Shown here: positions 7,961 through 48,769 of the stretch, in pieces | Numbering within the stretch: position 1 is the first letter of the stretch | Layout: each line of letters begins with the position of its first letter | Translations under genes and position numbers: made by a program | NCBI RefSeq assembly: GCF_056746865.1 | Contig: NZ_CM163382.1 | DNA length: 64,000 bases | Reading direction: 5' to 3' (one strand) | The notes under the pieces: model-generated | Told to the model about the DNA's origin: nothing | The model's input: only the letters and a program-made list of their open reading frames with translations | The model's database searches: none

Positions 7961-8323
7961 GGGGCTGATTCTGGATTCGACGGGATTTGCGAAACCCAAG
8001 GTGCATGCCGAGGGGCGGTTGGCCTCGTAAAAAGCCGCAAAAAATAGTCGCAAACGACGAAAACTACGCTTTAGCAGCTTAATAACCTGCTTAGAGCCCT
8101 CTCTCCCTAGCCTCCGCTCTTAGGACGGGGATCAAGAGAGGTCAAACCCAAAAGAGATCGCGTGGAAGCCCTGCCTGGGGTTGAAGCGTTAAAACTTAAT
8201 CAGGCTAGTTTGTTAGTGGCGTGTCCGTCCGCAGCTGGCAAGCGAATGTAAAGACTGACTAAGCATGTAGTACCGAGGACGTAGGAATTTCGGACGCGGG
8301 TTCAACTCCCGCCAGCTCCACCA
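7961..8323 (+). ncRNA. ssrA: tmRNA (SsrA), 363 nt
   Basis: Starts GGGGCTGATTCTGGATTCGACGGG and ends GGTTCAACTCCCGCCAGCTCCACCA. The internal tag reading frame GCAAACGACGAAAACTACGCTTTAGCAGCTTAA encodes ANDENYALAA. Confidence 0.98.
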
Positions 8324-33736: not shown

Positions 33737-33843
33737 GAAGCACATCATGAAGTAAGTTTTAAAATGGGAGATAACTTGCTTTTACATATTTTCCAATGCA
33801 ATATCATACCCTTTTAAAAATAAATCAGATATATGAGGTGAAA

Positions 33844-34866
33844 ATGTCTAGTCTTAATTTATTCGATGATGTCGTACCTTTAGAAAAACAGCATCCAATA
33901 TATATAATGATGAAAAAGGAACGCTATGAACCGGAGAGAGAAGTAATTAACCAATGGGCAAAAGGATTTCTAGACAGGGATAATAAGTTTACAAAAGAAT
34001 TTCAAACAAGTTTTGAACCTTGCCTATGGGAGTTATATCTTTTTGCTTATCTTAAAGAATTGGGTTTAAGGAACGACTTTTCATACGATGCACCTGACTT
34101 CATCGTCAATGAACCTGGGTTTTGCATTGAGGCAACCATAGCCCTTCCGGCACAAGGAGCCCCTGGAGCGCATGGTTTCAGTACGGAAGATATGCCAAGA
34201 GATTTTAATAAGTTTAATTCTGAGGCATCTATTCGACTTAGCAATAGTTTTATATCAAAGGTAAAAAAATTAAGATCGAGATATTCTCAACTTCCTCAAT
34301 GTAAAGAAAAACCTTTTGTTATCGCCATAGCTTCCTTCGACCGACCTTTTGCGCACTTTGCCGCAGCCAGACCCATACTTGCAACATTATATGGTTTATA
34401 TCATGATGAAGAAGCAACCATTGAATCAGGATCAAAGAGCATAATTTCTTATAACGTTGAGGCTGCGGTAAAAAAAGAAAATGTTAATATAGCCATGGGG
34501 TTATTTTGCACGCCTGATTATTCGGATGTAAGTGCTGTGATTTATAGTAGTTTAGCTACTTGGGGAAAAGTAAGAGCTTTGGCGGACAATCCTTCAGCTC
34601 TAACAATTTATACAACCTTTACCCCAAGAGAAAATTCATTATATCCTAAAGTTCATCAAGCCAAAAAAAATGATTATATAGAGCATCTGGCAGATGGATT
34701 GTATATTTTACATAACCCATTTGCCAAGTATCCGTTGCCTAAAGAGACGCTAAGCCACCCTAGAGTAGCACAAGGTTATGTTGAATCTGATGGATACGTC
34801 AATTTTGTAGCGCCAGAGGATTTTCTTTTATTGCGTTTTTTACAATCATTCAATCTTAAAGATTAG
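33844..34866 (+). CDS. uncharacterised protein, paralog B of the 10733-11905 product
   Basis: ATG 33844 is preceded by GAGGTG. 340 aa with FQTSFEPCLWELYLFAYL, APDFIV..FCIEAT, KPFVIAIASFD, IAMGLFC..DVSAVIYS and DGLYILHNPFA. Confidence 0.75.
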   Translation: MSSLNLFDDVVPLEKQHPIYIMMKKERYEPEREVINQWAKGFLDRDNKFTKEFQTSFEPCLWELYLFAYLKELGLRNDFSYDAPDFIVNEPGFCIEATIALPAQGAPGAHGFSTEDMPRDFNKFNSEASIRLSNSFISKVKKLRSRYSQLPQCKEKPFVIAIASFDRPFAHFAAARPILATLYGLYHDEEATIESGSKSIISYNVEAAVKKENVNIAMGLFCTPDYSDVSAVIYSSLATWGKVRALADNPSALTIYTTFTPRENSLYPKVHQAKKNDYIEHLADGLYILHNPFAKYPLPKETLSHPRVAQGYVESDGYVNFVAPEDFLLLRFLQSFNLKD

Positions 34867-35196: not shown

Positions 35197-36294
35197 TTAT
35201 TTTCTTGATAGGCTTTGTATAGTATGAATAAACCTTACAAAGTTATGAAGAAGCTCGTGATTTTCCTCTGATATACCATCTGGGTCAAAGTGCATCACGT
35301 CGTTACGAATTATTCTGACCTTGTCGAGCTCTTTAGTAAATATTTTCTTATCTATTTGAAGTTCGGTTTTTTTCCACAATTCTGGATTTTCAAAAAGTCG
35401 TATATATTCCCCAAAGGTTAAATCTGCGACCGACTCTATAACCCGTTCGCTGTCAAATGGATTAACGATGCTAACAAGCTCATCTTTCGTAAATTTTCCA
35501 TCTATCAGCTTACGAATATGATTTTCGATTTCAGATAGTAAAAGAAAAGGTTCTGACAACTGTCTGAACTGAGAACTAAGATCGGTAGTAGTTATAATCC
35601 CACTAATTCTTTGATCAGAAGATCGCACTAATACGTAAGCATACTCAATAATTCTAGGTAGTGCAGAAAAAATAGAGTCACTGGCGTTTATTTCCCTGTG
35701 TGGCTTCATATAATCACGCACAACCGCAGATTCTGATTGGGTCAACGCTAGTATTGGAGCAATGCTTTCCCAACTAATAACACCTTTAACATCTCGCTCG
35801 CTGGTCATAACGGGTAGTTGAGAGTAGTCATGCCGCAACATCAATGTGATGGCTTCTGTTAATGTAGCGTCAGGTTTCACGGTCACTAGTTTAACATCCG
35901 ATGCTTCGAGTCGACTAACACGGAAGGCTGGCTCGGAAACTGCACCGGAAATTAGTTCATCATGCGGCTGAAATACTGTTTCAGGTGTAGCCAATTCGGC
36001 GTTACTTGATTCGGTTTCTTCATGTAAACATTCACCTGCTTCATGGGGCGTTGCGTCATTCCCCGGAGGTGCATAGATAGTAATTTTTGCATCCAGCGGC
36101 ACACTATCAAAATCAGGTTCGGTTTTAACTCCTAAGCTTTCTAATGCTTTGCGAATTTTGTACGCAACCATGTAGCCTCGACGCTCTGCGCCAAACCAGC
36201 TTATGAATTCTCGCACTGATACTGGGTTTGAGGACATACCGTCTTTTAGTTCACGAAGGATTTCGTTAAGTCTTTCTCGATTTTCTACTGCCAT
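35197..36294 (-). CDS. CBS-pair protein with a C-terminal HEPN-like domain (Rx4H motif)
   Basis: 365 aa. Two CBS-like segments (VKLVTVKPDATLTEAITLMLRHDYSQLPVM..VKGVISWESI and VRDYMKPHREINASDSIFSALPRIIEYAYVLVRSSDQRISGIITTTDL). The C-terminal helical region contains IIRNDVMHF (RNDVMH encoded at 35290-35307). Confidence 0.7.
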   Translation of the reverse strand: MAVENRERLNEILRELKDGMSSNPVSVREFISWFGAERRGYMVAYKIRKALESLGVKTEPDFDSVPLDAKITIYAPPGNDATPHEAGECLHEETESSNAELATPETVFQPHDELISGAVSEPAFRVSRLEASDVKLVTVKPDATLTEAITLMLRHDYSQLPVMTSERDVKGVISWESIAPILALTQSESAVVRDYMKPHREINASDSIFSALPRIIEYAYVLVRSSDQRISGIITTTDLSSQFRQLSEPFLLLSEIENHIRKLIDGKFTKDELVSIVNPFDSERVIESVADLTFGEYIRLFENPELWKKTELQIDKKIFTKELDKVRIIRNDVMHFDPDGISEENHELLHNFVRFIHTIQSLSRK

Positions 36295-36940
36295 AAAATT
36301 TTCTCCATGTAGGTTGTCGGCTACTGTTAGGTTTCAATCTTGATTCAGGCTTCTCACGCTTTTTTTAAAATCTGGACAACGAGGCTGCACTGACTTTTTC
36401 AGCTCACCTCAGATTGCACCATCCCATACACATAGCTCAGATTCCTAATGTTCAGTATAAGGAGGCCAGAATACGAATTGCCCTTACCGCTAGTGCCAGC
36501 GCGTTGAGTTTAGTAGATGCCTTATTCATTTAGAATTTGATAAAAATACAAGACTCGGACAACAAGCTGCAATATTAATCGTTATTTTTCCACTCGAGGC
36601 CCACCGTCCGTTTCTGGCACAGGGCTGCTGTTGCAGCCCTGAAAACCTTAGACTTCAATCGATTCAAAGATCTCTAATGCATCATCTACTTCAATACCCA
36701 GATAACGGACTGTGCTTTCCAGTTTCTTATGGCCCAACAGAAGTTGGATCACCCGAAGATTCTTAGTTTTCTTGTAGATAAAGTAGGGTTTTGTTCTTCT
36801 CATGGAACGTGTGCTGTAAAGCGAATCTTCGAGACCAAGCTTTCCTGCCCACCCATGAAAGATTCGGTTGTATTGTAGGGTTGATATGAACCGCCCCGGA
36901 AATCCTGGAGACTAAACTCCCTGAGAAAGAGGTAAACAGG

Positions 36941-37267
36941 ATGACTAAAAATACTCGTTTTTCCCCCGAAGTCCGTCAGCGGGCGATTCGTATGGTTCTG
37001 GAAAGTCAGGATGAATATGACTCACAGTGGGCGGCAATTTGTTCCATTGCCCCAAAGATTGGCTGTACGCCGGAGACTCTGCGTGTCTGGGTTCGCCAGC
37101 ATGAGCGGGATACCGGGGGCGGTGATGGTGGGCTCACCAGCGCTGAACGTCAGCGTCTGAAAGAGCTGGAACGTGAAAATCGTGAACTGCGCCGCAGTAA
37201 CGATATCCTTCGCCAGGCTTCCGCTTATTTTGCGAAGGCGGAGTTCGACCGCCTCTGGAAAAAATGA
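36941..37267 (+). CDS. IS629 OrfA (HTH transposase subunit)
   Basis: 108-aa ORF inside the IS. It overlaps orfB at AAAAAATGATG, the frameshift region. Confidence 0.9.
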
Positions 37268-38154
37268 TGCCACTGCTGGATAAGCTGCGTGAGCAGTACG
37301 GGGTCGGACCGGTATGCAGCGAACTGCATATTGCCCCGTCAACGTATTACCATTGTCAGCAACAGCGACATCATCCGGATAAACGCAGTGCCCGTGCGCA
37401 GCACGACGACTGGCTGAAGAGAGAGATACAGCGCGTATACGATGAAAATCATCAGGTGTACGGTGTGCGTAAAGTCTGGCGTCAGTTGTTACGGGAAGGA
37501 ATCAGGGTGGCCAGATGTACAGTGGCACGTCTCATGGCGGTTATGGGACTTGCCGGTGTTCTCCGGGGTAAAAAGGTCCGTACGACCATCAGCCGGAAAG
37601 CCGTTGCCGCAGGCGACCGCGTAAACCGTCAGTTCGTGGCAGAACGACCTGACCAGCTGTGGGTGGCTGATTTTACTTACGTCAGCACATGGCAGGGCTT
37701 CGTCTATGTGGCGTTTATCATTGATGTGTTTGCCGGATACATCGTGGGGTGGCGGGTCTCATCGTCTATGGAAACGACATTCGTGCTGGATGCGCTGGAG
37801 CAGGCGTTGTGGGCCCGTCGTCCGTCTGGCACCATCCATCACAGCGATAAAGGCTCTCAGTATGTGTCACTGGCCTATACGGAGCGACTAAAAGAAGCCG
37901 GATTACTGGCATCAACAGGGAGTACAGGCGACTCGTATGACAACGCGATGGCTGAGAGCATCAATGGTCTTTACAAAGCGGAGGTAATACACCGTAAGAG
38001 CTGGAAAAACCGTGCAGAAGTGGAACTGGCCACACTAACGTGGGTGGACTGGTATAACAATCGACGATTGCTGGGAAGGCTGGGCCATACTCCTCCGGCA
38101 GAAGCAGAAAAAGCTTATTATGCTTCCATCGGAAACGATGATCTGGCAGCCTGA
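37264..38154 (+). CDS. IS629 OrfB (DDE integrase-fold transposase)
   Basis: 296-aa ORF with [17 protein letters not shown] and the [11 protein letters not shown] region. Confidence 0.9.
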
Positions 38155-38923
38155 GTTCACAGATAAAACACTCTCCAGGAAACCCGGGGCGGTTCAATAT
38201 GTGCTGATTAGTTCCGATACGAGACCGGAACAAGAAGTCTTTATTGTGCAAATAATCAAGCTTTATCAATGCAGCAATAGCTTCTCTTGTTCCTTTGGTT
38301 ATCTCAAATTGCACAGGGCTACCGGTTTTCTGTTGCAACACCGTTGCTCTGCTTGAAACCAAGCGACCATATGCCACATCAGATACTTTGAGTTTGACCA
38401 GATCACAGCCTCGAAGCTTACTGTCCAGGGCCATATTGAACAGAGCTAAATCGCGCGTTTTGCCTTCCAGTTCAAGCCGGATTCGGGTCCCCCAGATATG
38501 AGATATCTGAAGTGGTCTTTTTTGGCCGATGATACGGTCTTTGTTCCACGGTGACGTGTTCATACTCAAATCTCCTGCAATGTGGGAGATTTGAGTATGG
38601 TTGTCCCTTATGAGCGCAGGCTGTGTGAAAACACTCACCAAATACTAAAATGTATGAGGTTATGCAAAATCTGGAATCAATCAGCTGATTATCAGAGTCG
38701 AATTTTACGTAGGGAAGATATTTTCAGCTCTGTTTTAGGCCATTTCTGCACTCAAAAACGTTTTCACACAGCCGCGGTCAGATCGCAATCTTGCACCACA
38801 ATCTGGTACGAGTCAGGCAAGCATTTGGGGTGAAAGCCTGTCCTGAGTGAGAATCTAACCAAGCATTGTGTTATGTTTAACAACTGGAGTAGACTACAAA
38901 ATCAATTAATTAAGGATCTTGAG

Positions 38924-39799
38924 ATGACTATAGCCGCAGCTTGGGTAAGAACTTTAAGAAATTGCAAAGAATTGATTGTAGTATCAGATAGTAGATTAAA
39001 TGGTGGTATGAAAATGGATTGTGGGCAGAAGATAATAACTCTGCCTCGTTCAGATGCTTTCATATGTTTCGCAGGTGATACTAGTTGGGCATATCCTTTG
39101 ATGCATCAAGTGGCATCAGCAATTGATATATATGATCGTTGCTCCTCACGAGCCCAAGATATTAAAGAACTCAAAACCCATATTCTTAAAATTTTTGAAC
39201 GACTGAGAGAGCAAATTCACGATGCCATAGGTGACATGGATATACCCGATGCAAAATTCATATTCGGGGGATATTCATGGATAAGAAAAAAATTCATGAT
39301 TTGGCACATCACCTACCAAAAGAGTACCAACTCTTTTCGTGCGGATCCTGCACGTGAAATATATGGATCACCTGTTGTATTTACTGGTGATGAAGAACAT
39401 GTAATTGTAGCTAATGCTATGCTTCGTGAAAAATTAAAATCAAGAGGGAAGCTGGATAATTTAGAAAAAGGCATGAAAAATACTGTTAAATTTGAATGAG
39501 AACCATTTGAAGTTATTCGAGACATGTTTTACAAAGTTAATGAAAGTTCTTATGAATTTAAAAACTCATCAATTGGAGGCGCGCCCCAAATCCTAAAAAT
39601 CTATGAACATTTATCAAGTCAAAAACTTGGTGTTCTGTGGAAGAACAGGATGGATAGTGAACCGAACATATATTTATCTGGCCGGAGGCTTACTAATTAT
39701 GGTCCGCGAGATATGTGGATACTAGACCCTGAAAAACTGATAACGTACAATCCATTGAAAAGTAATCCTGATAAGGAGGTAATTAATCAATTCATTTAA
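38924..39799 (+). pseudogene. HslV/proteasome-beta-like Ntn-hydrolase family protein with an in-frame TGA (39497-39499)
   Basis: MTIAAAWVRTLRNCKELIVVSDSRLNGGMKMDCGQKIITLPRSDAFICFAGDTSWAYPLMHQV parallels the HslV/proteasome pattern (N-terminal Thr after Met, then ..vvia.D.r.t.g......Ki..l.....i.faG...da). ORFs 38873-39499 and 39524-39799 are in the same frame and separated only by TGA. Confidence 0.55.
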
Positions 39800-40131: not shown

Positions 40132-40470
40132 CTATATCTTCACTGTTAAAGAAAAAACTTTTGAATGTGGTTCACTAACCCGAAGTACAAATAGTTCAAT
40201 TGCATTATTACGATATGCCCTATCATGCCACTGTGGAACTCCCATCGCGATATTGGGACATAATGTTGTTGACAATGGCCGAGTGGTTTCAAACATAGCG
40301 CCGTATTTATATTCAGCGGGCCACTTTCCGCCATGAAATAGATATTGACCTGGCATCATCGGCCTACCACTTAAGCGAATTGCTTCTGATACTGCCTTTA
40401 GATCACAGCAATAAGTATCTCCTTGATATTCTGCAATCGGCTTAGGTGTAGTTTCTGGCATGTAAGACAA
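40132..40470 (-). CDS. hypothetical 112-aa protein
   Basis: ORF in a low-GC block. It contains YLFHGG and PLSTTL, a weak resemblance to ADP-ribosyltransferase motifs 1 and 2, but no clear third motif. The start is uncertain (TTG 40470 or ATG 40461). Confidence 0.35.
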   Translation of the reverse strand: MSYMPETTPKPIAEYQGDTYCCDLKAVSEAIRLSGRPMMPGQYLFHGGKWPAEYKYGAMFETTRPLSTTLCPNIAMGVPQWHDRAYRNNAIELFVLRVSEPHSKVFSLTVKI

Positions 40471-48693: not shown

Positions 48694-48769
48694 TGGTGGC
48701 CCTTGCTGGACTTGAACCAGCGACCGGACGATTATGAGTCGTCTGCTCTAACCACTGAGCTAAAGGGCC
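48694..48769 (-). tRNA. ileY: tRNA-Ile2 type with CAU anticodon (lysidine-modified in ileX/ileY)
   Basis: The reverse complement GGCCCTTTAGCTCAGTGGTTAGAGCAGACGACTCATAATCGTCCGGTCGCTGGTTCAAGTCCAGCAAGGGCCACCA is 76 nt. It has a cloverleaf, anticodon loop CT-CAT-AA and a CCA end, and is near-identical to my recollection of ileX. Confidence 0.9.

Follow-up and report, generated by a model that had tools for sequence, protein, structure and literature searches.

The DS-11 gene and its anti-phage phenotype

The stretch of DNA analysed here, hereafter called the window, comprises 64,000 nucleotides of contig NZ_CM163382.1 (NCBI RefSeq assembly GCF_056746865.1) and carries at 35197..36294 on the minus strand an open reading frame (ORF) for a protein of 365 amino acids followed by a stop codon. 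The original prediction, made from the letters of this DNA alone, had recognised the same ORF and interpreted its product as a pair of CBS modules gating a HEPN-type RNase in phage defence. The ORF is the same as the coding sequence (CDS) of WP_000257686.1, and the CDS annotated under this accession in NZ_OZ547571.1 showed a 100% match to the window gene in both DNA and protein. The window protein is the published E. coli anti-phage system DS-11; the two agree in every residue, in length and in the numbering of the mutated positions (Y157, R330 and H335).

The name DS-11 originates from the DefensePredictor paper (Science 2026; PMC13092281). Its Table S6 lists WP_000257686.1 with a gene of 1098 nt and the working name IMPD, and the sequence in Table S8 agrees with the window protein at its start and end. 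A search with the NCBIfam model NF053863 (DS11_antiphage, 'CBS domain-containing anti-phage protein') yielded 404.9 bits against a cutoff of 260, with profile positions 1-305 of 305 aligned to residues 28-356, which identifies the protein as a member of this equivalog family. Newer annotations of WP_000257686.1 already carry the same product name. PADLOC (2023) contains no model for DS-11 because this release predates its description.

In the published assay, candidate units were introduced with their native promoters on a low-copy plasmid into MG1655 and challenged with 24 phages. The single DS-11 gene reduced plating of T3 (-log efficiency of plating (EOP) of 3.0, 1.6 and 2.7) and of Bas67 (1.7, 1.4 and 1.6). 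The substitutions R330A and H335A, as well as Y157A in the CBS pocket, abolished protection, and with each mutant the phages plated as on the empty vector (PMC13092281). Single-gene defence against T3 and Bas67 which requires R330, H335 and Y157 is thus shown and published. The phage challenge and the R330A and H335A mutants proposed in the original prediction had therefore already been carried out with exactly this protein, and the defensive role assigned to it was borne out. The authors likewise described DS-11 as a protein with CBS and HEPN domains, predicted with AlphaFold3 a dimer binding two ATP molecules with interface predicted template modelling scores (ipTM) of 0.59 between the protomers and 0.88 to ATP, assigned HEPN_Swt1 to residues 252-359 by HHpred with a probability of 0.98, and regarded DS-11 as the first validated defence system having a CBS sensor (PMC13092281).

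The protein is consequently already known, together with its architecture, the defence phenotype and the mutants. Since both the hypothesis and the experiments suggested for it are reported in PMC13092281 and PMC3710099, and the family has already been named by NCBI, nothing is added here as a discovery; a reader of the raw sequence, working without databases, nevertheless arrived at the right conclusion, and the interpretation of DS-11 as a defence protein in which a CBS pair controls a HEPN RNase is supported. Our literature search for later mechanistic work on DS-11 returned none, nor is the system mentioned in the T7-kinase paper.

Domain organisation and conserved residues

Domain limits and folds were derived from an AlphaFold2 (AF2) model of DS-11, and all segments are encoded on the minus strand. 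A folded N-terminal domain (residues 1-75, 36070..36294) consists of three consecutive helices and two strands and was modelled with a predicted local distance difference test score (pLDDT) of about 85. It is followed by an acidic, disordered linker (residues 76-121, 35932..36069) which is rich in Asp and Glu, shows pLDDT values below 50 at residues 79-121 and varies in both length and sequence in the homologue alignment. The CBS pair, or Bateman module, spans residues 122-243 (35566..35931) and includes Y157 (codon 35824-35826), while the remaining residues 244-365 (35200..35565) form a helical domain of HEPN type. The N-terminal region, the acidic linker, the two CBS modules and the C-terminal helical domain had all been delineated correctly from the translation.

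The CBS pair was recognised by the Pfam model PF00571 with 58.2 bits against a cutoff of 24 in two CBS stretches, and no other Pfam model matched DS-11 at E ≤ 1; the pair also showed the Bateman fold. Conservation was assessed in an alignment of 60 homologues with identities down to 47%. The motif G232-x2-T235-x2-D238, which is of the ribose-binding type of CBS pairs, is invariant in these sequences, and residue 157 is aromatic in 60 of 60 (Tyr in 38, Phe in 22). Together with the AlphaFold3 model containing ATP and the Y157A phenotype, these residues indirectly point to the CBS cleft as the predicted site of an adenosyl ligand.

The original prediction had rested its nuclease assignment on a motif of Rx4H type, and this catalytic-type motif, R330-N-D-V-M-H335, is indeed encoded at 35290..35307 (minus strand), as deduced from the translation. 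An upstream Ex3[KR] motif, as defined in PMC3710099, was identified as E257-N-H-I-R261 (35512..35526, minus strand). In the 60 homologues R330, N331, H335, F336 and D337 as well as E255, E257, H259 and R261 are invariant. A profile search with the C-terminal domain returned 1,855 representative clusters at E ≤ 0.001; in the 61 examined, with identities down to 34%, R330, N331, H335, F336, E257 and R261 are again invariant and the CBS pair is retained in all 61. Modelled alone with AF2, the domain reached a pLDDT of 90.1 and a predicted template modelling score (pTM) of 0.82. The helices of the AF2 model comprise residues 247-264, 294-310, 316-334 and 343-364, so that in this predicted structure R330-H335 extend from the last residues of helix 316-334 into the following loop. 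According to PMC3710099, HEPN domains are recognised by an Rx4-6H motif located where helix 3 ends and continuing into the loop that leads to helix 4, by a polar residue following the arginine and by an upstream Ex3[KR] motif; all three hallmarks are present in DS-11.

The gathering score of HEPN_Swt1 (PF18731) was not reached, as the window protein gave no HEPN match at E ≤ 1. Among the C-termini of homologues, sub-threshold Pfam matches were obtained to HEPN_Swt1 in 12 of 28 (best E 1.2e-3), to RiboL-PSP in 3 of 28 and to STY4199 in 1 of 28, and the best full-length match of a homologue to HEPN_Swt1 (P0262) reached 25.0 bits against a cutoff of 27.5. A Foldseek search of the C-terminal model against the Protein Data Bank (PDB) yielded no match at E ≤ 0.001; the highest TM-scores, none of them significant, were found for AbiA and HepS, defence proteins which contain HEPN domains. 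The profile of this domain matched PDB sequences at chance level only (DNA polymerase kappa, E 0.37). We accepted the C-terminal domain as a predicted HEPN domain because of its motifs, its topology, the profile-profile evidence and the mutant phenotypes, and not because of Pfam thresholds or fold-search scores. Conservation of the arginine and the histidine and modelling of the domain as HEPN had been named beforehand as points on which the prediction could fail, and on both it held.

The N-terminal domain, which the accessible parts of the DefensePredictor paper do not mention (PMC13092281), is present in 239 of 269 members of the DS-11 family and contains the invariant residues V27, R28, R38, R39, T58, P60 and F62. 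Comparison with Pfam gave no consistent family, just scattered single matches to AlkZ-like, Cac1_C and HTH_20, and no sequence relative was found in the PDB. In its place, a few CBS-HEPN relatives (P0181, P0255 and P0236) carry a winged-helix domain of Mrr_N type (E 1.4e-22) or a different N-terminus, and in one relative a helix-turn-helix (HTH) domain of XRE type takes this place. The possibility that the N-terminal domain itself is a diverged Mrr_N was rejected, as hhalign returned a probability of 0.2%. The replacement by Mrr_N or an XRE-type HTH suggests that the N-terminal module is exchangeable and may have a modular recognition role.

Genomic neighbourhood

The DS-11 gene has a GC content of 0.38-0.46 compared with 0.52-0.60 in the flanking core genes, in agreement with its earlier description as a low-GC cassette. 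A GGAG ribosome-binding site, read from the sequence, is located at 36303..36306 (minus strand), 8 nt upstream of the ATG. A gene for a small tyrosine recombinase of integrase type precedes DS-11 on the same strand, with a gap of 353 nt between them. The spacing and the ribosome-binding site make the proposed monocistronic expression plausible, while the scan for promoters and terminators around DS-11 gave no signal above chance and no intrinsic terminator. A perfect GC-rich hairpin of 9 bp, CAGGGCTGC-AACA-GCAGCCCTG, is located at 36620-36641 (minus strand) just after the recombinase stop codon and lacks a T-run; it might separate the recombinase transcript from that of DS-11.

The original prediction was right in placing DS-11 beside a recombinase gene, but had not recognised that this gene is broken. 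An IS3-family element of 1.3 kb (36889..38196, plus strand), which the comparison locus L002 lacks, splits it into a 3′ part (36648..36888, minus strand), which gave a weak Phage_integrase match in Pfam, and a 5′ part (38197..38563, minus strand), assigned by Pfam and genome comparison. The element contains orfA (36941-37267, 108 aa) and orfB (37264-38154, 296 aa), annotated as a transposase with a programmed frameshift. An intact recombinase gene (603 nt, WP_001305755.1) is present in NZ_CP030768.1, and the gene is unbroken in strain 2017C-4173W12; other strains carry the intact gene or have an IS5 nearby instead. Compared with DS-11 as published, the window encodes the same protein and differs by the interruption of the upstream recombinase gene.

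On the other side, convergent with DS-11, a homologue of the anti-phage protein PD-T7-5 is encoded at 33796..34866 on the plus strand (PADLOC PDLC04110, E 9.8e-102), which also matches PD-T7-1 in PADLOC (E 5.2e-51) and is labelled in RefSeq as hypothetical protein WP_001376998.1. This neighbour had not been noticed in the original prediction. DS-11 and the PD-T7-5 homologue form a small low-GC defence islet of two genes. A megablast search recovered the DS-11 locus, and likewise the two-gene islet, with ≥ 99% identity from about 129 of the 5,426 complete E. coli genomes, and in these records the CDS of DS-11 is WP_000257686.1.

Between the recombinase gene and the ypjA autotransporter gene lie three further ORFs of low GC content (0.34-0.41; 38873-39499 and 39524-39799 on the plus strand, 40132-40470 on the minus strand). 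They gave no match in Pfam, NCBIfam or PADLOC and could be further uncharacterised cargo of an island. The window also contains the tmRNA gene ssrA (7961-8323, plus strand; tag ANDENYALAA) and a tRNA-Met gene (48694-48769, minus strand). The gene ssrA is a classic integration site of islands, and because of this and the vicinity of ypjA this part of the DNA is similar to the variable region linked to ssrA in E. coli.

The earlier statement that an adjacent antitoxin is missing was confirmed, as no antitoxin-like ORF adjoins DS-11 in the ORF list and no small ORF is coupled to it. The neighbours of the gene are wholly different in E. coli, Pseudomonas and Crenobacter, with none conserved. Homologues from Pseudomonas occupy the cargo end of a P2-like prophage, and those from Crenobacter are surrounded by genes of conflict systems. 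One example is Pseudomonas corrugata CP102177.1 (locus L003, 8001-9104), where a P2-like prophage with genes for tail, lysis and Dam methylase functions ends in umuDC-like genes directly followed by a homologue with 72% identity; this is a typical prophage position for defence cargo. As no neighbour is shared, a stand-alone, auto-inhibited effector fits these observations better than a toxin-antitoxin pair.

Proposed mode of action and related systems

We consider it probable that DS-11 is a stand-alone, ligand-gated CBS-HEPN anti-phage protein which acts as follows. The protein would dimerise through its CBS pairs and thereby bring two HEPN domains together, so that a composite RNase site independent of metal could arise from their two Rx4H motifs. 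Whether this site is active would be set by an adenine-containing ligand in the CBS cleft. Upon infection, certain T7-like phages may then alter the ligand or its occupancy, and the resulting cleavage of RNA would block phage production. No antitoxin would be needed because DS-11 is proposed to be auto-inhibited, and the conserved N-terminal domain probably adds recognition of a target or trigger. PMC13092281 reports neither RNase activity in vitro nor a gating ligand or an abortive mode for DS-11.

Of the alternatives, one assigns the sensing function to the N-terminal domain. The CBS pair would then be only a constitutive dimerisation scaffold stabilised by ATP, and the N-terminal domain would recognise a protein or nucleic acid of the phage and release the HEPN RNase. 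The conservation of this domain with its invariant residues, its exchange in a few relatives for Mrr_N or an HTH of XRE type, as expected of a modular recognition domain, and the use of plain ATP in the authors' model, an abundant metabolite and thus a poor signal, argue in this direction. Yet the domain lacks detectable relatives in Pfam and the PDB and any detectable link to Mrr_N, and the loss of defence in Y157A indicates that the CBS pocket matters. We therefore regard this explanation as unlikely.

Another alternative retains gating by the CBS pair and specifies what it reads. DS-11 would guard S-adenosylmethionine (SAM) metabolism as a metabolite guard, in which the CBS pair monitors SAM or methylthioadenosine (MTA) and fires the HEPN RNase when SAM is lost or MTA rises by the action of gp0.3, the SAM-degrading anti-restriction enzyme of T3-like phages. 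The only sensitive phages recorded in Table S7 of PMC13092281 are T3 and Bas67 (Berlinvirus), both from genera with a SAM hydrolase at gp0.3, and according to the BASEL paper all Studiervirinae genera except that of T7 carry a T3-type SAM hydrolase at this position. As CBS pairs which bind SAM or MTA are also among the closest structural matches of the DS-11 CBS pair, DS-11 may sense depletion of SAM or accumulation of MTA. Against this, two sensitive phages are compared with a single resistant one from which they differ in many other genes, and the insensitivity of T7 is taken from missing rows in Table S7 rather than from a reported value. Moreover, T7 may instead carry a counter-defence, and structural likeness of CBS pairs does not show ligand specificity. 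This explanation is accordingly quite improbable; if true, the phage counter-defence against restriction-modification would itself set off another layer of immunity, and the restriction of the phage range to T3 and Bas67 provides a cheap and testable lead on SAM metabolism.

That the C-terminal domain is not a nuclease but an RNA- or protein-binding helical domain, with R330 and H335 serving binding or folding, we judge highly improbable: PMC13092281 contains no biochemical assay, fold searches were non-specific, Pfam thresholds were not reached and catalytically inactive HEPN domains such as that of eukaryotic Swt1 exist, but inactive HEPN domains typically lose Rx4-6H (PMC3710099), whereas in the DS-11 family the R, N and H and the upstream Ex3R show no variation among 120 sequences, as is characteristic of a functional active site.

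A ligand-gated CBS-HEPN protein can be compared with several known systems. HEPN-MNT toxin-antitoxin systems are characterised by a conserved adjacent antitoxin, which DS-11 lacks. Csm6/Csx1 are CARF-HEPN RNases triggered by cyclic oligoadenylate, and RNase L is triggered by 2-5A. DS-11 would resemble them in the fusion of a sensor for an adenine ligand to a dimeric HEPN RNase which becomes active upon infection, but its sensor is a CBS pair, whereas theirs are CARF or ankyrin/pseudokinase domains, and no signal synthase is encoded near DS-11. The structural neighbours of the C-terminal domain with the best coverage or the best TM-score, AbiF (8vz6), HepS (9oij) and the HEPN domain of AbiA (8oz7), are grouped here as stand-alone HEPN defence nucleases and all belong to phage defence. 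By domain architecture DS-11 is likened to the CBS(-HD)-HEPN fusions of the Swt1-like/Abi2 clade (alr3009, Pelobacter gi 118580987; PMC3710099). These often carry an HD phosphohydrolase, which DS-11 lacks, possessing instead its distinct N-terminal domain of about 75 amino acids. Anantharaman et al. (2013; PMC3710099) listed CBS (and HD) domains as fusion partners of active Swt1-like HEPN domains and suggested that RNA stability is under the control of nucleotide ligands, and it is the combination of a CBS pair with a Swt1-like HEPN domain of active type, for which ligand-regulated cleavage was proposed, that DS-11 shares with these proteins.
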